Origin: Escherichia phage Phi1
Length of the DNA: 64,000 nt
Strand: one strand, 5' to 3'
Sequence record: EF437941
Position numbers and translations under genes: made by a program. The notes beneath the pieces are model-generated. The model saw only the letters and a program-made list of their open reading frames with translations, had not been told where the DNA came from and did no database searches. Shown here one piece after another: positions 742 to 52,231 of the stretch (position 1 is its first letter; the number at the start of each line of letters is the position of its first letter).

Positions 742-887
742 ATTCAATTACCCCGAACTCGTTTACAATCTGCGCTTTATAGTAACCGCCGCGAGATGCC
801 AATAGATAAGCTGGGCTTAGGTATTCGTATTCACGGATTTCTACTTGTGCGTTTTCAGTTTCCCAAATCAGTAAAGTCCACATATTT
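738..887 (-). CDS. small hypothetical protein (~49 aa, below ORF-track cutoff)
   Basis: ATG preceded by GGAGAATCAAAT and a stem-loop promoter at ~926-954; overlaps the nrdG start; coordinates approximate. Confidence 0.35.
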
Positions 888-925
888 GATTCTCCTGTAA
901 AGTTGTATCTCGTCTTGATGAATAT

Positions 926-954
926 AGTATAGGGGATCTCGCGATCCCAGTCAA
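926..954 (-). promoter_or_regulatory. early sigma70-type promoter with stem-loop in spacer (PeSL-like)
   Basis: Minus strand TTGACT-GGGATCGCGAGATCCCC-TATACT; inverted repeat fills the 17-bp spacer. Confidence 0.6.
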
Positions 955-6419: not shown

Positions 6420-6692
6420 TCATTTCACTAATTGAACAGCACGAAACAGAATGCGGTCACACGGAAGCAGCATAAATTCCCAACGCGGATCAAAGTCTTT
6501 AGCGGTGTATGTTTTCCCATCAACAGAGATTTCACTTACATAACCAATAGGTGACACTTTAAGAACAGTAAATCCATTCTTGATTGCTTCGTAGGTATCT
6601 TTCAGACCTTCGTAGTCGTCCTCTAAGAAGTCTTTACGTGCTTGCTCAGATTTAAAAACATAGGCCACGCCAGCTTTAAACATCTTACGCAT
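6420..6692 (-). CDS. hypothetical protein (paralog family A, short)
   Basis: Track ORF N-terminus overlaps the promoter at ~6724-6752; internal ATG after AAGGAGAATCAACA taken as start. Confidence 0.5.
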   Translation of the reverse strand: MRKMFKAGVAYVFKSEQARKDFLEDDYEGLKDTYEAIKNGFTVLKVSPIGYVSEISVDGKTYTAKDFDPRWEFMLLPCDRILFRAVQLVK

Positions 6693-6723
6693 TGTTGATT
6701 CTCCTTCTTGATTAGATGGGAGC

Positions 6724-6752
6724 ATTTTACTACTCCCATTTCTTATTGTCAA
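6724..6752 (-). promoter_or_regulatory. early promoter with stem-loop (PeSL-like)
   Basis: TTGACA-N17-TAAAAT; inverted repeat GGGAGTAG/GCTCCC. Confidence 0.5.
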
Positions 6753-9305: not shown

Positions 9306-9591
9306 GATTTACCCCCAATTCATCAAGATTATGTCGCAGCATTTCAGAGTATTTTTCTACTTCCTTAATCTTAGTGTGGATCTCCACGATCTCATCTTCA
9401 CTATCAGAAAGTTTAATGGCAATAGGGGTGCTGCTTTTACCCACCTTGATCGCTTCTTTCAGTTCAACCAACATGTCCGCGTGTTTCAATAGTAATTCTT
9501 CACGTTGAACATAAGCTACGGTCAAAGCCTCATCAGCGATTTCTAAAGCATTTTCAGCGACACCAACAACCATTTTACGAGTAGACAGCAT
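9298..9591 (-). CDS. hypothetical protein
   Basis: Tiled minus-strand ORF. Confidence 0.45.
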   Translation of the reverse strand: MLSTRKMVVGVAENALEIADEALTVAYVQREELLLKHADMLVELKEAIKVGKSSTPIAIKLSDSEDEIVEIHTKIKEVEKYSEMLRHNLDELGVNHG

Positions 9592-10302: not shown

Positions 10303-10581
10303 CTACATGTCTTGCAGAGCATAAAAGCATTTTTCTTCGTAGTCATAGAAAATGTCAAAGTATGCTTTTTCTACATACTCACCATTGATCCAAGCGGCAG
10401 TAACAATCAGAGTGGTCCAGTTAGATCCGCTCTCAACGGTAAAGGTTTTAATACCCAGCTTAACAGCCAAGTCACGAGCAAACTGGTCGCAACCACGACA
10501 GGATGTGATATTGGAAGTTTTGATTTTAAAGCCACCGCGAGTTTTAGAAATTTCTACTTTAGCGAAAGACAGGTTGCTCAT
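10303..10581 (-). CDS. hypothetical protein
   Basis: ORF behind stem-loop promoter ~10624-10652 and conserved AAGGAGAATCAAA-ATG region. Confidence 0.55.
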   Translation of the reverse strand: MSNLSFAKVEISKTRGGFKIKTSNITSCRGCDQFARDLAVKLGIKTFTVESGSNWTTLIVTAAWINGEYVEKAYFDIFYDYEEKCFYALQDM

Positions 10582-10623
10582 TTTGATTCTCCTTAAGAAA
10601 GTATGTTTCGTTTTGATGTGTGT

Positions 10624-10652
10624 AGTATAGGGGATACGTGATCCCCTGTCAA
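10624..10652 (-). promoter_or_regulatory. early promoter with stem-loop in spacer (PeSL-like)
   Basis: TTGACA-GGGGATCACGTATCCCC-TATACT. Confidence 0.6.
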
Positions 10653-12404: not shown

Positions 12405-12624
12405 TTCTTTTATATGGTACTATAACAGGATTAATACAGCAAGCACCAATTACGTTATGAGCACCACAATTTAAACATTTATAGTCATGGAACTTATTAA
12501 GAAATCGACCAAACTCATAACCGACTAGCGCCGCATGTACTTGAGTCTCGATCTCATCCATATCAGCCAATGTTTTAACCTTCATAGTATAATCCTCAAA
12601 TGGTAGTTTTGCGAAGATGGTCAT
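12388..12624 (-). CDS. hypothetical Cys-containing small protein
   Basis: CLNCGAHNVIGACC motif; tiled ORF. Confidence 0.45.
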   Translation of the reverse strand: MTIFAKLPFEDYTMKVKTLADMDEIETQVHAALVGYEFGRFLNKFHDYKCLNCGAHNVIGACCINPVIVPYKRNETEE

Positions 12625-12886
12625 TACATGCTTTTAATGCATCGGTCGCGGTGTCATAGCGAGTATTATCATAGCACCAATAACCATCTGTCAACTGATA
12701 AATTAATCCATCCTTTTTAGCTTCGATGAAAGACAACTCTTTGAAAGTTTCTACTTTCTTTGCTGATACTCCACGGTCACGGCGTTTATAGAGTTTAGCT
12801 AAAATGCGTTCAGCTTGTTCCTCTTTATCGCCAGACAGATCCCAGATGATGCTTCGGATATGCTTGATTAATTGTTCAGTGGTCAT
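12596..12886 (-). CDS. hypothetical protein
   Basis: ORF behind TTGACA-N16-TATAAT promoter at ~12916-12943 and AAGGAGAATCAAAG-ATG. Confidence 0.55.
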   Translation of the reverse strand: MTTEQLIKHIRSIIWDLSGDKEEQAERILAKLYKRRDRGVSAKKVETFKELSFIEAKKDGLIYQLTDGYWCYDNTRYDTATDALKACNDHLRKTTI

Positions 12887-12915
12887 CTTTGATTCTCCTT
12901 AGTTGGTATGCGTGC

Positions 12916-12943
12916 ATTATAGCATTGTGATTATCTTTGTCAA
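12916..12943 (-). promoter_or_regulatory. early sigma70-type promoter
   Basis: TTGACA-N16-TATAAT directly downstream of the terminator. Confidence 0.6.
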
Positions 12944-12988: not shown

Positions 12989-13765
12989 TTACACGCGAGC
13001 ACCGTAGATCGTGCCTACTTTATCCCAACGAGGGGCATTACCAGTAACGGCTTTACCAGCAGCACCACCGTTATATTCTGTACCGTTACCCTGAGTATTA
13101 CATCTTCCTCCAGCAGCACCAACGTTACCTCCAGCACCGCCTGTATATGCACTAAGAGACCCCGAACCAACAGATCCTTTACCTGGAGCGGAAATGGAGC
13201 CAGCGGTTGCACCAGAACCCATATTAGAGGAAGACCCACCAGCACCGAATGGGCGACCACCGCCACCACCAAATACTAGTATACCCCTGTTACCGCCACC
13301 ACCACCGCCACCGCCGCCAACGATAGCACCGTTATTTGTAATTCGTAGACGTGTACCGATAGCGTTATTGATTGCGTTTCCACCAGCAGCGCCAGCAGCG
13401 TTACTACCACCATTACCCCCACGTCCGTAGACAGTCACACCGGAGTTAATGATCAATGTTACATATTCGTTTGTTAACGAGCTAGGGAAGTCAAGACAAG
13501 GAACGCCAGTAGAATGAGAAACAATATTACCAGTGATAGTAATTACTACCGGAGTAGATCCTTGTGCTTTCATCCAGTTAATAAGAGTGTCTTTATTGTA
13601 AGAGTTACTAGCACCAATGCTATAATGAATCTCTTTAGAGCGTCCGACCATTGCCGACATATACGCCGGACGACCTAAGCGTACAGCTTGCATTGCGGCG
13701 CTCATCCACCGTTGACCAGTCTCGGACACCGCAGATGATCCTACCCATCCAGAAGATATTGCCAT
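12989..13765 (-). CDS. 38: glycine-rich protein, gp38-like receptor-recognising adhesin (T2-type architecture)
   Basis: N-terminus GWVGSSAVSETGQRWMS followed by several poly-Gly motifs separating short variable segments; about 258 aa; flanked by hairpins. Confidence 0.55.
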   Translation of the reverse strand: MAISSGWVGSSAVSETGQRWMSAAMQAVRLGRPAYMSAMVGRSKEIHYSIGASNSYNKDTLINWMKAQGSTPVVITITGNIVSHSTGVPCLDFPSSLTNEYVTLIINSGVTVYGRGGNGGSNAAGAAGGNAINNAIGTRLRITNNGAIVGGGGGGGGGNRGILVFGGGGGRPFGAGGSSSNMGSGATAGSISAPGKGSVGSGSLSAYTGGAGGNVGAAGGRCNTQGNGTEYNGGAAGKAVTGNAPRWDKVGTIYGARV

Positions 13766-13819: not shown

Positions 13820-14041
13820 TTAGATGACCTCTGCTTCACCATCCAGGAAGAAAGACCATGTTTTGTTAGGATAGCGAAGCGCCCATGATTCAGCAGTTTT
13901 AACACCAGCTTCGAACAATTGACGGCTGGTTACTTTAGCCATACCATCTTCGATGGCAACGTTTTCAATAATCATCGGGTACTTAGCGCCACGCATGAAA
14001 CCGAAACCAGCGGAAGATTTGATAATTTTAACAGTTGCCAT
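13820..14041 (-). CDS. hypothetical protein (paralog family B-like)
   Basis: Start at ATG after AAGGAGAATCAAAA; KII...GFGFM...YPMIIEN pattern resembles 11227..11487. Confidence 0.55.
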   Translation of the reverse strand: MATVKIIKSSAGFGFMRGAKYPMIIENVAIEDGMAKVTSRQLFEAGVKTAESWALRYPNKTWSFFLDGEAEVI

Positions 14042-14080
14042 TTTTGATTCTCCTAGAAAGTGTCGTGTTTCGATGGGTGT

Positions 14081-14109
14081 ATTATGCAATAACACCGGAA
14101 CGATGTCAA
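14081..14109 (-). promoter_or_regulatory. early promoter (PeSL-like)
   Basis: TTGACA ... CATAAT with a GT-rich inverted repeat; conserved leader follows. Confidence 0.5.
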
Positions 14110-14759: not shown

Positions 14760-15094
14760 TTGTAACCCTCCTCTGAAAGCACATCCCAGATCGTTGCGTC
14801 AAGATGCATTAAATTCCACATAATAGAGTCATAACTACCGAAGCCAGAAGTAAAAATTACATCACACTGGCGATAAGTCTTATGAAAATCGGTAGCGGTC
14901 TTTGCGTCAATAGGCATATCGTCACCGGAAAGCACCAGACATTTAAGAATCATAACTCTGTTAGCCGTTGGCGCTTGCTTAGTCTTTTCAGCATATTTTT
15001 CGATGATCCGTTTTGCCTTTTCTTCTTTGATACGTCCAGACCAAATCCGGTTTCGGTATTGATTCATAATAATTTCAATCACATCATTTTGCAT
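14756..15094 (-). CDS. hypothetical protein
   Basis: Tiled ORF. Confidence 0.45.
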   Translation of the reverse strand: MQNDVIEIIMNQYRNRIWSGRIKEEKAKRIIEKYAEKTKQAPTANRVMILKCLVLSGDDMPIDAKTATDFHKTYRQCDVIFTSGFGSYDSIMWNLMHLDATIWDVLSEEGYK

Positions 15095-15293
15095 TCTTCA
15101 CGGTCTCCATAATTGTTTTGTAAGCCAGTTTAAGATGATCACCGAAAAACTTTGCAGTGTTACCCTTCGGATCGCGGAGCATGGTTTCTACGATCTCATC
15201 GGCAGTAACAATTTCTCCTTTCTTTGCTGCATGTTCTACCATATACTTCAAAGTTTCTTCGGAAGCAAGTGCTGCGGCTACTGGATTAATCAT
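15084..15293 (-). CDS. hypothetical protein
   Basis: ORF behind promoter ~15320-15350 and conserved AAGGAGAATCAAA-ATG. Confidence 0.5.
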   Translation of the reverse strand: MINPVAAALASEETLKYMVEHAAKKGEIVTADEIVETMLRDPKGNTAKFFGDHLKLAYKTIMETVKNAK

Positions 15294-15319
15294 TTTGATT
15301 CTCCTTTGTTGTCGATGTG

Positions 15320-15350
15320 TGCATTATGCTATACCATGATCCGGTTGTCA
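15320..15350 (-). promoter_or_regulatory. early promoter
   Basis: TTGACA then -10-like TATAGCATAAT; conserved AAGGAGAATCAAA-ATG leader follows. Confidence 0.5.
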
Positions 15351-15354
15351 ACAC

Positions 15355-15388: not shown

Positions 15389-15702
15389 TTGATTATATTT
15401 TATTCACGTCCATTTGTATAGTAGTGTTTGAATCGACCGTAACCAGTTTCAATGGTCATTGTTCTTTGGTGAACAATAGCCCAATAACCGTTACAGGAAT
15501 ATTGCAGATACAAATCTTTACCTTTCATAAACTCATTAAAGATTGTTTCTGCCAGTCATAATAGACAACATCTTCAAGTTACCCATCCATGCGGGTCTTC
15601 CGATTCGGCAGTAATTGAACACGCGAAAGTATGAGGAAGCCAAATGGTTGTGTTAATGCTAGTTTTCTTTTACTTCTGGTATGTATCCCACTGTGACTAA
15701 CA

Positions 15703-18577: not shown

Positions 18578-19168
18578 TCAATAGCGTTTAGTCTTAAGAA
18601 TGCCTTTACTCTTTAGATGGTTAGCCTTTTTTAGTACGTCATCAGCATAACCTAATCCGGCTTTATAGTTCCATCCAGCATTGTAAGAAGCTAGCGCGAG
18701 TCGGATATTACCGTTTCGAATATCCAGCCAGTATGCTAACTCATCCATCGCGTAGAATGCAGAAACCTCGCGATTCATGATAAAGTTGATAGTCTGGCGA
18801 TCACTCATTTTAACACCACGCTTTGCATTTTTCGCTTTCACCGTTTTAAGGTAATTTTGAAATAATCCATAAGCATGATGATTTTTCTTTGGTGCTAAGT
18901 TTGCACCCGCGCTTGATTCTTGCCATGCGATACCCGCTAGGATGTGGCCTAAACCCTTTCCGTTATAGCGAATATTCGGATGGTACTTTTTCAACTTACC
19001 GCTTTTCTCGAATTGCTCGCCGTATTGATAGGCGAAATGTAAATTATCTAGTTGGTGTGCTGTAAAGTTGTCTATCGGCGCTTTTTTGATCGGTGCGCTA
19101 GTCGATGCGTGTGTAGCACCAACGGCTAGTGACAGACTCAATACTATCGCTTTTAGAACTTTTAACAT
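18578..19168 (-). CDS. lytic transglycosylase-like (SLT domain) protein with signal peptide
   Basis: Signal peptide then AGIAWQESS...YGLFQ, resembling the SLT catalytic Glu-Ser and GLMQ motifs. Confidence 0.6.
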   Translation of the reverse strand: MLKVLKAIVLSLSLAVGATHASTSAPIKKAPIDNFTAHQLDNLHFAYQYGEQFEKSGKLKKYHPNIRYNGKGLGHILAGIAWQESSAGANLAPKKNHHAYGLFQNYLKTVKAKNAKRGVKMSDRQTINFIMNREVSAFYAMDELAYWLDIRNGNIRLALASYNAGWNYKAGLGYADDVLKKANHLKSKGILKTKRY

Positions 19169-19254: not shown

Positions 19255-19719
19255 TTATTGGTCTACCTTCAAAACAACCGCCGACATTTTACCCGCCAGT
19301 CGTTTTGGATTCTCTATAATCATTCGGCAGCATAGACCGTGATATGGCTTACCCTCTTCGATTAGATCTACTGTCATCCCGATCCACATGTTACCGTCAG
19401 TAATTTCTAATCGATTAGGTCGGTCTTCCATTTTCAGGAAGTCGAAGATCTCCGGCAAACGAGTTTCTATCTTATTGAATAGTTCCATTGTCTTATGTTC
19501 ATCAATATGACGATCGGTTAGACGGTCGATCATATGCGGACTAAAGCGAATGAAAATATACTCACCATAACCATCATTCAAGCACTTTTCTTTGATCTTC
19601 GCATTGGTTTTGCGCATTTCGGTTTCGAAGAATCTACGCAGCTTACTACGGCGAACATGTACGTTAATTGTTTCCATTTTATTATCCTTTCTTAAACAAA
19701 TTGCGAATCCAGTATACAA
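19255..19719 (-). CDS. hypothetical protein
   Basis: Tiled ORF; true start may be the internal ATG (METINVH). Confidence 0.45.
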   Translation of the reverse strand: MYTGFAICLRKDNKMETINVHVRRSKLRRFFETEMRKTNAKIKEKCLNDGYGEYIFIRFSPHMIDRLTDRHIDEHKTMELFNKIETRLPEIFDFLKMEDRPNRLEITDGNMWIGMTVDLIEEGKPYHGLCCRMIIENPKRLAGKMSAVVLKVDQ

Positions 19720-20017
19720 ACGGGATTTCTTTAAACTTGAATTTCTCTATAGTTAATTCTTTAGTAGCAAGATGAATACCATAAGCATCATGTGTCACGA
19801 TATGCCATTTTCTATAGTCCAAATGTGAACAACCGTCTGGATCTAGGTTAATAAGAGTTTCTCGCTCACTAGGATTATTTTTCCACAATTTTGTAATAGG
19901 ATCGCACATAATTCGACCTAGCGTACCATGAATAATCTCACAACGGTAAAGTTTTCCAGCAGTGAGATAGGCGCACCCGTCATAGTCGGTATAAACAAAC
20001 ACTTCTTTAACACTCAT
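19682..20017 (-). CDS. hypothetical protein (paralog family C)
   Basis: GCSHL...W motif shared with 20075..20335 and 20317..20511; start after AAGGAGTATTAAA behind promoter ~20046-20074. Confidence 0.5.
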   Translation of the reverse strand: MSVKEVFVYTDYDGCAYLTAGKLYRCEIIHGTLGRIMCDPITKLWKNNPSERETLINLDPDGCSHLDYRKWHIVTHDAYGIHLATKELTIEKFKFKEIPFVYWIRNLFKKG

Positions 20018-20045
20018 TTTAATACTCCTTTGTTTCGATGGGGGT

Positions 20046-20074
20046 ATATTACTACCCCCGTTTTGTTGTGTCAA
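20046..20074 (-). promoter_or_regulatory. early promoter with stem-loop (PeSL-like)
   Basis: TTGACA-N17-TAATAT; inverted repeat GGGGGTAGTAAT/ATACCCCC. Confidence 0.55.
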
Positions 20075-25360: not shown

Positions 25361-25402
25361 TTTGATACTCCTTAGTAGTTCGTGTTTCGTTTCGATGGGT
25401 GT

Positions 25403-25431
25403 ATTATGCTATACACCCTCTTGTGTGTCAA
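25403..25431 (-). promoter_or_regulatory. early promoter with stem-loop (PeSL-like)
   Basis: TTGACA-N17-CATAAT; inverted repeat GGGTGTAT/ATACACCC around the -10. Confidence 0.55.
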
Positions 25432-25439
25432 CAACTTTT

Positions 25440-25628
25440 TTAGTCTTTTTTCATAATTTCTAGAGCAGTTTCTACAGCACCTTTCCAACCCTCCCACATA
25501 ATGGACATAGTAATGAAGTTAAAGCACCCGCAGGAATCAACCTTTTTAGAGATAAACCATTCAACAAATCCTTCGCTCATACCATGCTCTTTAGCGGATT
25601 CGCGTAATTGTTCAATTTGGTCTTCCAT
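25440..25628 (-). CDS. hypothetical protein
   Basis: Tiled ORF. Confidence 0.45.
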   Translation of the reverse strand: MEDQIEQLRESAKEHGMSEGFVEWFISKKVDSCGCFNFITMSIMWEGWKGAVETALEIMKKD

Positions 25629-25836: not shown

Positions 25837-26064
25837 TTATAGTTGATCAGCAATGTATGCGGTGCATTTGCGGAGTTTAGCCATAGCACCACCTTTCATG
25901 TCGCTTGCGCCTACAATGTTCATGATCTCTAAGCGATCAGCCGGATTCAGTCTAGTAGCCCAGATCTGGTTAGCCAGTTCCATTTTACCCATCTGCGGTT
26001 CCATCTCAAACAGTTCACGCTCAAAGTCGATAATTTCTTTTGCGGCGTCTTTAAAGTTAATCAT
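25837..26064 (-). CDS. hypothetical protein
   Basis: ORF behind stem-loop promoter ~26094-26122. Confidence 0.5.
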   Translation of the reverse strand: MINFKDAAKEIIDFERELFEMEPQMGKMELANQIWATRLNPADRLEIMNIVGASDMKGGAMAKLRKCTAYIADQL

Positions 26065-26093
26065 TTTGATTCTCCCGTTTCGTTGATGGTTGT

Positions 26094-26122
26094 ATTGTAG
26101 GGGAGTTATCCTCCCCTGTCAA
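26094..26122 (-). promoter_or_regulatory. early promoter with stem-loop in spacer (PeSL-like)
   Basis: TTGACA-GGGGAGGATAACTCCCC-TACAAT. Confidence 0.6.
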
Positions 26123-26130
26123 CACTTTTA

Positions 26131-26316
26131 TCAGAAATATGCAATATAGTTTGCCAGTCCTACAGAGTCATCATTCGGCATTGCTTTTACTGCCAGTTCA
26201 AACCCTGCTTCAACTTTCTGTTTAGCGGATTCTTCGTTATAACCCCAGATTACCAGAATAGCTACTACGTTTTCTTTGCTTACTGCTTTCAGTGCTTTAG
26301 TGATGCGACGTGCCAT
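26131..26316 (-). CDS. hypothetical protein
   Basis: ORF behind promoter ~26363-26391 and conserved leader. Confidence 0.5.
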   Translation of the reverse strand: MARRITKALKAVSKENVVAILVIWGYNEESAKQKVEAGFELAVKAMPNDDSVGLANYIAYF

Positions 26317-26362
26317 AATTTGATTCTCCGTTTAAGAAAGTGTGTTTCGTTTCGATGGGTGT

Positions 26363-26391
26363 ATTATGCTATAGGCCGGATCTGGTGTCAA
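26363..26391 (-). promoter_or_regulatory. early promoter
   Basis: TTGACA-N17-CATAAT followed by the conserved leader. Confidence 0.5.
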
Positions 26392-27707: not shown

Positions 27708-27719
27708 ATTATCACCTTA

Positions 27720-27878
27720 TTTGCTAATCGCTAAACCTAATCCGAAGAGAGCACCCGACGCTACAGTATACCCGAAAGTTTCAAAGGCAGTAAAGATATC
27801 TAAGCCACCAGCTAACAGAGTTGCAGTAAACAGAGTACCAGCTACGAACATAAAAGTTTTACCGATAAATTTCATTTT
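27720..27878 (-). CDS. small membrane protein (~52 aa, below ORF-track cutoff)
   Basis: ATG after AAGGAGAATCAAA directly behind stem-loop promoter ~27907-27935; coordinates approximate. Confidence 0.4.
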
Positions 27879-27906
27879 GATTCTCCTTTCGTTTGTTTGT
27901 GGGGGT

Positions 27907-27935
27907 ATCTTACTACCCCCGTTTCATGTTGTCAA
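27907..27935 (-). promoter_or_regulatory. early promoter with stem-loop (PeSL-like)
   Basis: TTGACA-N17-TAAGAT; inverted repeat GGGGGTAGTAAGATACCCCC. Confidence 0.55.
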
Positions 27936-27941
27936 CTATTT

Positions 27942-28316
27942 TTAAGAATATTTTACTTCGTCTACAATGTCTTTCATGACATTGATTTCCATTCCGGTCA
28001 GAACACGTTGGAACATGTGCTGAACATACGCTTTCAGGTATTCATTTGATGGCTTGCTATCGAAAGTCTTTTTAGTGTAGTAGTCATCACCGAAAGCTAC
28101 TGTAATTACATTTTCGTCGTCGTTCCAAGCGATATAAGCAAATTTGCCGTTATCCCAGAAGCGAGCACTAATTGCTACTTTTGTTGAATCGAATCCTACT
28201 TCGCTGTGAGATTCAAGAACTACTTGCGTGCCAGTTTCTTTATGAATGTAGTAGCGGGATACTAAGTCAAAGTTACGGGTGTAGTGACATTCGAACTTAT
28301 CTTTAAACATCATCAT
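27942..28316 (-). CDS. hypothetical protein
   Basis: ORF behind promoter ~28355-28383; start at ATG after GGGAGAATCAAAA. Confidence 0.5.
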   Translation of the reverse strand: MMMFKDKFECHYTRNFDLVSRYYIHKETGTQVVLESHSEVGFDSTKVAISARFWDNGKFAYIAWNDDENVITVAFGDDYYTKKTFDSKPSNEYLKAYVQHMFQRVLTGMEINVMKDIVDEVKYS

Positions 28317-28354
28317 TTTTGATTCTCCCAAGTGTTTTTCGTTTCTATGTGTGC

Positions 28355-28383
28355 ATTATGCTATAGTCGTTTATGGTTGTCAA
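28355..28383 (-). promoter_or_regulatory. early promoter
   Basis: TTGACA-N17-CATAAT directly downstream of the terminator. Confidence 0.5.
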
Positions 28384-32781: not shown

Positions 32782-33255
32782 CTATTTGTTAAGCCCTTTA
32801 AAGCCAAACACTTTCTTTAATGCATGTTCGGTTATGATCTTAAACTCCATGTTATGCTTTTGACATAATTTCACGGCAGCTAACCATTTTTCAGTATTTT
32901 TTGTGTATGTCCATACTTCATGCATATATCGTTGCTTTGTCTTCGCGGTCATTCTTTTTGGCTTTTCCGGTGGCCTTGTCTCTTTAGCTGGTTTAACTTC
33001 CCATAAATGCTCCTTGCCATCATCAAACTTAACGTAAAAATCCATAAAGTATCTGTGTCTTTTTCCGTCTGTTGATGACTCATAAGGAATTACTACGGTC
33101 TCAGATCCCCATTTTGCAACTCTAGGATTGCGGTCTAGCCACTGCATGATCCATCTTTCCCAGCTTGAACGGTATGTGATCTTACGTATATCCCCTTTAT
33201 ACTTTTTCTTATTCTCAGGAACATACTTGCCCTTATAAGTGTTAGATCCTCCCAT
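32782..33255 (-). CDS. 4: head completion protein gp4-like
   Basis: 157 aa, divergent from gene 53 as in T4; size and synteny. Confidence 0.65.
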   Translation of the reverse strand: MGGSNTYKGKYVPENKKKYKGDIRKITYRSSWERWIMQWLDRNPRVAKWGSETVVIPYESSTDGKRHRYFMDFYVKFDDGKEHLWEVKPAKETRPPEKPKRMTAKTKQRYMHEVWTYTKNTEKWLAAVKLCQKHNMEFKIITEHALKKVFGFKGLNK

Positions 33256-33270
33256 TTTAGCACCCTTTAT

Positions 33271-33278
33271 TATAAATA
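33271..33278 (+). promoter_or_regulatory. T4-type late promoter (TATAAATA) for gene 53
   Basis: Exact TATAAATA ~33 nt upstream of the ATG. Confidence 0.65.
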
Positions 33279-33310
33279 CATAATACTATTTATCAATTGA
33301 GGGTGCTAAA

Positions 33311-33865
33311 ATGCTCTTTTCTTTCTTCCCTGCCATTGAATACAACGGCAAGATGATTACTGACATTGTGCGCAATTACCGCGCATATTTCAACGCAATA
33401 ATTTCTGATTATAACATACAAACATATTACATTCAAGGTAGTCCACGACCGGAACAAGTTGCATATGAAGTATACGGAAACCAACAACTTTACTGGATCT
33501 TGCTGATGCTTAATGACGTATACGATCCGTTTCATGACTGGATCACCGATCAAGAGACAGCATATGAATCAGCCGAACAGCGATATGCAAATGTAGGAGG
33601 AAATCAAGTATTATACCACGTTGATATTGACGGAAACAAGTATTGGAATCTTACCGAATATCCGAAAGGATCAAGCAATTGGTATGATAAAGGGGATATT
33701 CATCACCGTCATTTGCAGTTTCAGGGTGCATTATCGGCAGTAGACACACTGGAAGATGCGATCCTCCGTAATGAGGAACGACGCAAGATCAAGATCATAG
33801 ATCCTACACAAATTAAACAATTTATTAACGCATTCATTCGAGAAATGGAAAAGGCTGATGTGTAA
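33311..33865 (+). CDS. 53: baseplate wedge protein gp53
   Basis: First gene of the plus-strand late cluster, late promoter TATAAATA upstream; size and synteny. Confidence 0.75.
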   Translation: MLFSFFPAIEYNGKMITDIVRNYRAYFNAIISDYNIQTYYIQGSPRPEQVAYEVYGNQQLYWILLMLNDVYDPFHDWITDQETAYESAEQRYANVGGNQVLYHVDIDGNKYWNLTEYPKGSSNWYDKGDIHHRHLQFQGALSAVDTLEDAILRNEERRKIKIIDPTQIKQFINAFIREMEKADV

Positions 33866-51589: not shown

Positions 51590-51631
51590 TTGACTAATAT
51601 GTTCTCGTTAGTGTATGATCTGACGAGAACA
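51590..51631 (+). promoter_or_regulatory. sigma70-like promoter plus inverted repeat upstream of the homing endonuclease gene
   Basis: TTGACT-N18-TATGAT; 9-bp inverted repeat TGTTCTCGT/ACGAGAACA spans the -10; RBS AAAGGAG follows. Confidence 0.45.
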
Positions 51632-51646
51632 TAAAAGGAGAATCAT

Positions 51647-52231
51647 ATGGCATATTATTATCTATATCAAATAACAAATAATTTAAATGGGATGGTCTAT
51701 GTTGGTATGAGAACGTCCAAAAAACCAATAGAAAAGGATTCTTATTGGGGGAGCGGAAAACGAATTAAAAGAGCAATAAAAAAGTATGGAATAGAGAACT
51801 TCACAAAAACTATTCTTTCCACACACAACACGTTAGAAGAACTAGCTTTAGCAGAAAAAAAGATAGTGACTAAGGAATTTGTAGAAAGAGAAGATACATA
51901 TAATATTGCTCTGGGTGGAGTGAATAGAGGTTCTTTGTGGGATGACATGGACGAAGAAACCAAAAATGAAGCAAGAAGAAAAATATCTGAAAAAGCATCC
52001 AGTCGAAAAAGAGAATCTCACTCAGAAGAGACTAAAAATAAAATGAGTCAATCGGCAAAAAATAGAAATAGAGATTGGGAAAATTTTAAAGGCGCAAGAA
52101 AAATTATGGCAGAAGGTGTTCTATACTTAACCACTCAAGAATGTTGTAGAAAGTATGGGATATCAGCCGCTTCTATGAGGAAACGAGTAAAGTCAACCGC
52201 AGAAAAATGGAAGGAGTTTTATTATGTTTGA
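51647..52231 (+). CDS. GIY-YIG homing endonuclease-like protein (freestanding, seg-like)
   Basis: N-terminal YYLYQITN...GMVYVGM (GIY-YIG), NUMOD3-like [13 protein letters not shown]-terminal HTH-like segment. Confidence 0.8.

Follow-up and report, generated by a model that had tools for sequence, protein, structure and literature searches.

The repeated leader and initiation region of Krischvirus early genes as the probable 3' module of promoter-early stem-loop cassettes

The DNA analysed here, referred to as the window, is a 64,000 nt stretch of Escherichia phage Phi1 (EF437941). Krischvirus genomes, among them those of GEC-3S, RB49, ECD7 and JSE, match it at 97-98% identity over tens of kilobases, and by its sequence the window belongs to a Krischvirus, a T4-type coliphage of the RB49/phi1/GEC-3S kind. 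Both GC skew and the open reading frames indicate minus-strand gene direction throughout positions 1-33,250; hence the feature at 25361-25402 has to be read as its reverse complement, which runs ACACCC followed by ATCGAAACGAAACACGAACTACTAAGGAGTATCAAA, then ATG at 25360-25358. The reverse complement of the larger interval 25361-25451 reads ctaaaaaagttg TTGACA cacaagagggtgtatag CATAAT acaccc ATCGAAACGAAACACGAACTACTAAGGAGTATCAAA ATG. The features of this locus are:

25432-25443, minus strand: A-rich, UP-like sequence CTAAAAAAGTTG ahead of the -35 hexamer
25426..25431, minus strand: -35 hexamer TTGACA (promoter scan)
25403..25408, minus strand: -10 hexamer CATAAT, with a 17-nt spacer (promoter scan)
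25397..25418, minus strand: stem-loop GGGTGTAT-agcata-ATACACCC, over the -10 box and discriminator (RNAfold, dG -12.1 kcal/mol)
25361..25396, minus strand: predicted 36-nt 5' untranslated region (UTR) AUCGAAACGAAACACGAACUACUAAGGAGUAUCAAA, counted from the putative start site
25361..25371, minus strand: 11-nt Shine-Dalgarno (SD) block GGAGTATCAAA, the family consensus being GGAGAATCAAA
25034..25360, minus strand: gene following the cassette, encoding 108 aa with an LPD25 domain

A promoter is annotated in the GEC-3S record at the homologous place, and likewise at other sites of the cassettes described below. The transcript probably starts at the A after CCC, since RB49 early promoters favour C at positions -3 to -1, their predicted consensus fitting mapped 5' ends (Nolan 2006). 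With such a start, the interval 25361-25402 would be composed of a 6-nt discriminator and the 36-nt 5' UTR, and the 5' arm of the stem-loop, being upstream of the start site, would be missing from the cassette's own mRNA. The SD block of this copy has a mismatch to that of the family.

Scanning the window for TTGACA-N16-18-TATAAT followed by an SD sequence and ATG, with up to two mismatches permitted over the 12 hexamer positions, detected 19 cassettes. Two of them are plus-strand; the remaining 17 are minus-strand and fall within 883-28,316. The 107 genes were called by strand block, with three corrected by hand, and promoter-like matches within coding sequences (CDSs), at the gene starts 11391 and 24644, were left out as false cassettes. 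In the 19 cassettes the ATG follows the -10 box at 27-46 nt, with GGAG or GAGG lying 5-9 nt before it, and an anchored alignment gives the AT-rich consensus aaaattTt..aaaaAg.tG upstream of TTGACA. A different translation initiation region (TIR), consisting of GAGGATTATATT or its relatives, is found in five of the 19, and the cassette at 19168 has the type-A block in degenerate form only (GGAGAAATTAA). GGAG is present in every type-A cassette; those other than the focal one, together with the neighbouring regB gene, are:

881..954, minus strand: type-A cassette (-35 to ATG), gene 731-883 (scan and alignment)
6690..6752, minus strand: type-A cassette, gene 6420-6692 (scan and alignment)
10579..10652, minus strand: type-A cassette with long leader, gene 10303-10581 (scan and alignment)
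12884..12943, minus strand: type-A cassette, gene 12596-12886 (scan)
14039..14109, minus strand: type-A cassette with long leader, gene 13820-14041 (scan)
15291..15351, minus strand: type-A cassette, gene 15084-15293 (scan and alignment)
19255..19689, minus strand: regB endoribonuclease gene 19255-19677 (PF10715, E=1e-48), with its own SD block GGATAATAAAA at 19677-19687
20015..20074, minus strand: type-A variant cassette (GGAGTATTAAA), gene 19682-20017, the next gene being regB (scan and alignment)
26062..26122, minus strand: type-A cassette, gene 25837-26064 (scan and alignment)
26314..26391, minus strand: type-A cassette with the longest leader, 40 nt, gene 26131-26316 (scan and alignment)
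27873..27935, minus strand: type-A cassette, gene 27717-27875 (scan and alignment)
28314..28383, minus strand: type-A cassette, gene 27942-28316 (scan and alignment)
51590..51649, plus strand: type-A-like cassette before a SegE-like GIY-YIG endonuclease gene

The last of these precedes a homing-endonuclease gene (PF19835; 51590-52231, plus strand) that lies among late genes with an early-type cassette of its own, containing GGAGAATCAT. When the same scan was applied to a complete genome of the RB49 species (OZ035808), 61 promoter-plus-TIR cassettes were found, 25 of which are of type A. Most of the proteins encoded after the cassettes have either no Pfam family or match only a DUF.

A stable stem-loop is present in 15 of the 19 cassettes, with dG values from -9.7 to -16.6 kcal/mol and three positional classes; it is weak in the cassette at 14041, and no clear stem-loop is present in those at 26316 and 19168. 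The stem-loops overlapping the -10 box, at 25397-25418, 20037-20062 and 27899-27922, are not followed by a U-tail on the sense strand; all three have a T-rich run on the plus strand, giving an intrinsic-terminator-like score. Hence these structures resemble terminators on the antisense (plus) strand, and might therefore stop antisense transcription.

A preliminary description of this DNA had proposed that the leader and start region recur in front of many unrelated early genes. The eight gene starts that it cited are real (10581, 14041, 15293, 12886, 25360, 26316, 28316 and 27875, the last given there as 27878), and all-versus-all blastp among the downstream proteins confirmed that the CDSs following the leader are unrelated. 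The sequence AAGGAGAATCAAA, with up to two mismatches, matches the window 16 times against an expectation of 2.89, a number reached in none of 100 shuffles. Twelve of these matches are at minus-strand gene starts behind a TTGACA-N16-17-TATAAT promoter, whilst others are a plus-strand cassette at 51635 and the SD sequence of regB. The repeat is exclusively tied to promoter-proximal genes: GGAGAATCAAA, with at most one mismatch, is found before 11 of the 22 genes led by a promoter but before none of the 85 others (Fisher p=2e-9, which overstates the significance because homologous cassettes are counted as independent).

The extent of the similarity had been overstated, in that '~35 nt almost identical' does not describe leaders of 21-40 nt with a mean pairwise identity of 67%; yet the repeat is real and goes beyond the SD core. 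Shuffled leaders have a mean identity of 0.54 and CDS segments of equal length one of 0.50. Identity is 70-85% within a long subclass (39-46 nt) and 66-86% within a short one (27-31 nt), and CATCGAAACGAAACAC was found only five times even when three mismatches were allowed. Since alignment of the leaders also reveals conservation of AATCAAA, the 7 nt after GGAG, and of a start-site block, CATCGAAAC, the similarity is not limited to the SD sequence. The leader is thus composed of two conserved islands, AUCGAAAC at +1 and the 11-nt GGAG block, with a fast-evolving linker between them. Across the whole cassette the anchored alignment has the appearance of a mosaic: the UP/-35 region, the -10 box, the aCaCCCATCgAAAC block and the SD block are conserved, whilst the promoter spacer, which holds the 5' arm of the hairpin, is unrelated between copies and the middle of the leader varies in length. 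Among 39 promoter-proximal GGAG sites genome-wide, the consensus of which is GGAGAAUCAAA, each of positions 5-11 carries 0.75-1.5 bits, as against 0.6 bits or fewer on either side. GGAG is a common SD sequence, but these counts and the information content of the seven positions after it make it virtually impossible that the likeness is due to chance or confined to the SD core.

A scan of IMG/VR with the exact pattern CATCGAAAC-N2-30-GGAGAATCAAA returned 19 loci, which have a promoter context only in Krischvirus-like contigs; the matches outside these are situated in unrelated sequence, as chance occurrences would be. A look-alike whose promoter resembles a Mot box was rejected as not coming from a T4-like phage. 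The long-leader cassettes (10595-10608, 26332-26347 and 14056-14065, minus strand) also contain ACUUUCUUAAGGAG, resembling the 'epsilon' enhancer context of T7 gene 10, UUAACUUUAAGAAGGAG.

Divergence within the leader was studied by comparing the cassettes of the window with their orthologues in five relatives. The divergences per site, derived from small counts in genomes that are phylogenetically non-independent, are:

GGAG core: 0.014
7-nt spacer after GGAG: 0.013
+1..+9: 0.025
leader middle (many indels): 0.078
codon position 3: 0.051
codon positions 1 and 2: about 0.010

The 7-nt spacer and the +1..+9 block both change more slowly than codon position 3 (p=0.0005 and 0.013, respectively), whereas the middle of the leader changes faster than synonymous sites. 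Hence purifying selection acts on two parts of the leader, its start-site block and its 11-nt GGAG block, but not on the remainder.

The leader is not structured. Folding of the RNA from the predicted start to +30 gave weak MFEs of -2 to -8 kcal/mol, for which most z-scores were positive; the common leader fold that structure prediction might have revealed did not emerge, as the MFEs are no lower than those of shuffles and the structures vary among copies. No Rfam family matched either strand of the 64 kb at gathering threshold. The only stable hairpin is the promoter/terminator part, mostly upstream of the start site, and the mean unpaired probability predicted over -15..+3 is 0.45-0.74. A structured cis-regulatory RNA, whether riboswitch, attenuator, thermosensor or sRNA target, has nothing in its favour beyond the repetition of the sequence itself; the weak folding, the variable length of the leader, its fast-diverging middle and the failure to match Rfam all tell against it, and this candidate was rejected as extremely improbable. 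The proposal that the leader as a whole is the shared target of a regulator or RNase likewise fails on the rapid change of the middle relative to synonymous sites, and on the lack of a common fold or Rfam family.

A further explanation would be that the leaders resemble one another purely through hitch-hiking, as recent copies or conversion products under no selection beyond the GGAG core and promoter. The divergence of the leader middle is as this would predict, and idiosyncratic strings such as ACACTTTCTTAA are common to sub-families of leaders, whilst the JK32 orthologue of the cassette at 26316 has a leader variant known in a paralogue. However, the 7-nt spacer and +1..+9 block fall below codon position 3 between orthologues, and paralogues are conserved only in patches, with promoter spacers that are unrelated and yet a nearly invariant 11-mer, hence simple recent duplication would not be expected to give the pattern. 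Such hitch-hiking is accordingly regarded as a quite unlikely cause of the likeness. In the JK32 case, which also concerns ECD7, the JK32 leader is CTAACTAGGAG, compared with CTTAAACGGAG in the window; the same variant heads a paralogous cassette at another place in Krischvirus genomes, a hint that paralogous leaders undergo conversion.

Taken as a whole, the leader and initiation region very probably constitute the 3' module of the promoter-early stem-loop (PeSL) cassette. The PeSLs of RB49 and phi1 have strong sigma70-like promoters preceded by AT-rich sequence, together with G/C stem-loops that fall into five classes by position, and by definition have the SD sequence and start codon as their 3' extremity; their promoter and terminator activity was demonstrated experimentally, as was the formation of mini-circles (Arbiol 2010, PMC2839356). 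The crossovers of these mini-circles fall between the -10 box and the ATG (Arbiol 2010, PMC2839356; Comeau 2014, PMC4122927), and cassettes composed of a PeSL and an ORFan were likened to integrons and Botstein-Campbell linkers (Arbiol 2010, PMC2839356). The cassettes described here come from the same phage group, and share with PeSLs the sigma70-consensus promoter, the AT-rich upstream sequence, the positional classes of the stem-loops and the SD sequence plus start codon at the 3' end. They are also found upstream of ORFans in hyperplastic regions, the region of the cassettes being rich in indels between relatives, and in individual relatives show crossovers between the -10 box and the ATG; nothing essential distinguishes the two. 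The focal stem-loop is the SL of a PeSL. Hence the repeated leader and ribosome binding site are real but already known, PeSLs having been described for RB49/phi1 in 2010, and the 'portable expression unit' of the preliminary description is the published PeSL concept (PMC2839356), in agreement with three recombination joints in relatives, each located in the leader, its SD block or the ATG itself. The published alignments (PMC2839356, PMC4122927) are of the promoter and SD sequence, and do not include the 7-nt spacer after GGAG, the +1 block, the two TIR families or a link to RegB, a name that does not occur in Arbiol 2010 (PMC2839356).

Such a cassette comprises four parts: an A-rich UP region with a near-consensus sigma70 promoter; a G/C stem-loop that precedes the promoter boxes, separates them or overlaps them; the conserved start-site block, CCC followed by AUCGAAAC; and a short, unstructured, A/C-rich 5' UTR ending in (A)AGGAG-AAUCAAA-(0-2 nt)-AUG. 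Any ORF behind it would be expected to undergo immediate-early transcription by the host RNA polymerase and efficient translation, the latter presumably through the 6-7-nt SD sequence, the 7-9-nt A-rich spacer and the lack of secondary structure. As the copies share 60-85% of their bases over stretches of tens of nucleotides, and short homology is enough for recombination of the T4 type, the leader and SD block probably also act as crossover points at which cassettes and ORFs are reshuffled.

Recombination joints of this type are found in the relatives. In LF73P4, the cassette at 10581 is retained, with a compensated change in the stem, and from the ATG onwards is followed by a different ORF. 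In both LF73P4 and G2248, the gene for a gp38-type adhesin, its terminator and the promoter half of the cassette at 12886 have been swapped for a compact 37-nt promoter, with homology returning from the start site, at CATACCAACTAAGGAG. In phiS, a deletion of ~1.15 kb has fused the promoter and leader of the cassette at 14041 to the CDS of gene 12886, with the crossover inside the shared GGAGAATCAA, the SD block of both cassettes. These three genomes thus provide clean natural swaps of promoter and leader via ~10-25 nt of homology.

Nevertheless, most indels between positions 9500 and 29000 are not cassette-mediated, several being insertions of homing endonucleases or deletions internal to genes. 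An automatically scored survey of this region in six genomes, comprising 15 unique indel events and 30 breakpoints, placed two breakpoints in cassettes where 1.7 were expected (p=0.5). Manual curation shifts one phiS breakpoint into a cassette, and a further cassette breakpoint, that of LF73P4 at the ATG of 10581, falls outside the tally of 30. As the enrichment is not significant, the case rests on the individual joints rather than on a statistic.

The gp38-type tail-fibre adhesin gene itself (12989-13765, minus strand) lies between two type-A cassettes, and is missing from this locus in LF73P4, G2248 and phiS through two different cassette-linked events; thus a host-range determinant is acting as a cassette-bounded module. 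Nearby, positions 15392-15700 contain an apparent remnant of a gene of ~715 aa that is intact in Brandy, JK32 and G2248; here ~1.85 kb is absent, with an 8-10 nt overlap at 15592-15601, and the event was not mediated by a cassette.

In having conserved regulatory flanks that allow unrelated ORFs to be swapped along with expression signals, PeSL cassettes are similar to integron cassettes, Botstein-Campbell linkers and the 'morons' of lambdoid phages. However, no dedicated integrase or attC-like site is known for PeSLs, unlike integrons, and exchange is apparently through general recombination over short repeats; in contrast to morons, the regulatory sequence of a PeSL is itself the vehicle of mobility. 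A parallel also exists in T4-type early promoters, which are conserved well past the two hexamers and followed by stereotyped ribosome binding sites; Liebig and Ruger are said to have defined, in 1989, an extended consensus for T4 early promoter regions that includes the ribosome binding site. The -35 boxes of T4 are of the GTTTAC type, whereas the Krischvirus promoter follows a pure sigma70 consensus; the natural RegB consensus of T4 is GGAGAAUAAAA, and the Krischvirus block is GGAGAAUCAAA.

Further analysis of gene starts in the window revealed a second stereotyped TIR, type B, with the form (stop codon)GAGGATTATATT-ATG, in which the upstream stop codon abuts GAGG; the RNA sequence is GAGGAUUAUAUU. 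It is found on the minus strand at the gene starts 4549, 5782, 6405, 8787, 9914, 12585, 18195, 24425, 29844 and 32770, is used mostly by internal genes without promoters, and does not resemble a RegB site. Its 8-nt spacer has a divergence of 0.011 between orthologues, compared with 0.069 at codon position 3, and so behaves like nonsynonymous sites. This TIR might represent an intercistronic linker or a RegA-type operator. Elsewhere, two divergent genes at 33253-33313 have identical initiation regions, AGGGTGCTAAAATG, on both strands, forming a 12-nt inverted repeat around an AT-rich centre with late-promoter motifs of the TATAAATA type.

Two phage-encoded regulators might read the type-A initiation region. 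RegA is a translational repressor of many early and middle mRNAs, on which it binds in competition with ribosomes at unstructured, A+U-rich sites that include the AUG and have a 5' poly(A) tract, as in T4 gene 44 (AAAUUAUGAUU). The A-rich stretch over the AUG of type-A genes (AAUCAAAAUGA, AAAUUAUG) could be such an operator: AAAUUAUG is present in the cassette at 26316, early genes whose AUG is covered or adjoined by A-rich, unstructured sequence are reminiscent of the T4 and RB69 operators, and a RegA homologue is encoded in a genome of the RB49 species (PF01818, E=1.6e-54), although the window contains no regA. However, RegA sites lack a sharp consensus, and their degeneracy deprives a sequence match of meaning. 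The Krischvirus block is anchored on GGAG and the following 7 nt rather than the AUG, before which the information falls, and the spacing between block and AUG varies by 0-2 nt. The U-rich type-B TIR also looks at least as RegA-like. A RegA operator over the AUG of these genes is consequently considered unlikely.

The other candidate is RegB, and as a target of an RNase or regulator the 11-nt GGAG block, unlike the complete leader, is plausible on the basis of its sequence. T4 RegB cuts GG^AG in the SD sequences of early mRNAs, as reviewed, and RegB with ribosomal protein S1 recognises GGAGRAYARAA, a single-stranded site of 11 nt located in early TIRs (Durand 2006, PMC1702504), the natural consensus being GGAGAAUAAAA (Durand 2006, PMC1702504, and review). 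By analogy, GGAGAAUCAAA would be the target of the phage's RegB and S1, and a cut within the SD sequence (GG^AG; GG^AGAAUCAAA) would silence type-A genes once the early period is over, as with T4 early mRNAs. This would add a layer to the PeSL explanation, rather than replace it, and we hold it tentatively, as a possibility to be taken seriously.

Several features of the block point in this direction. The family consensus fits 10 of the 11 positions of GGAGRAYARAA with the same length and register, starting from GGAG in the SD sequence of promoter-proximal early genes, and is similarly A-rich in its 3' half with a pyrimidine at position 7. The information in the 39 TIRs is high exactly at positions 5-11 and drops on both sides, and the 7-nt stretch behind GGAG shows the same degree of constraint as nonsynonymous sites. 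GGA[G/U] occurs in the SD sequence of 19 of 20 promoter-led genes, but only 26 of 87 others, and the 3' context of the promoter-led sites is nearer to RAYARAA (p=3e-5). The leaders are predicted to be unpaired, as a single-stranded site demands, and the window contains regB, with GGAUAAUAAAA as its own SD sequence, GGAU followed by a perfect A-rich tail. The regB SD sequence of RB49 is also GGAU, and those of T4-related phages, where tested, are cleaved in vivo (review).

Other features tell against RegB. No exact GGAGRAYARAA is found in the window. AAUCAAA fits six of the seven positions of RAYARAA, but ~72% of copies have C at position 8, for which a 'strong bias in favor of A' is known from T4 and SELEX sites; in T4 this preference for A extends over positions 6, 8, 10 and 11, and in the RegB-resistant RNA of gene 1 both position 8 and position 10 are C. 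The spacer of the type-B TIR, despite not being RegB-like, is equally constrained; therefore constraint is not specific to a type of cassette and is not by itself a pointer to RegB. Shared descent of the cassettes could also yield the logo without selection for cleavage. Finally, the enzyme is divergent: the homologue in the window retains the His equivalent to T4 His48, whereas the second catalytic residue, His68, is replaced by Asn, with other His residues nearby (RHIDEH). According to the literature, the RB49 RegB is active.

A more elaborate possibility, which we think doubtful, is that the mobile type-A cassette carries a full temporal programme, with the 11-mer having co-evolved with the divergent RegB (C at position 8 in the one, Asn at the His68 position in the other), and internal genes being placed on a RegB-resistant, possibly RegA-controlled linker, (stop)GAGGAUUAUAUUAUG. 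If this were true, an ORF captured behind a type-A cassette would automatically be expressed at once and subsequently shut off by RegB, and two stereotyped TIR modules would sort the genes of these phages between two post-transcriptional regulators.

As a discovery, the repeat carries little weight, since portable, recombinogenic PeSLs ending in an SD sequence and start codon were published in 2010. It does, however, sharpen the anatomy of their 5' UTR, in which a fast-evolving linker connects the +1 block to the 11-nt GGAG block, both of them constrained. It also leads to a concrete hypothesis that would be cheap to pursue, namely that type-A cassettes are RegB/S1 sites giving new genes both early-on and early-off control.
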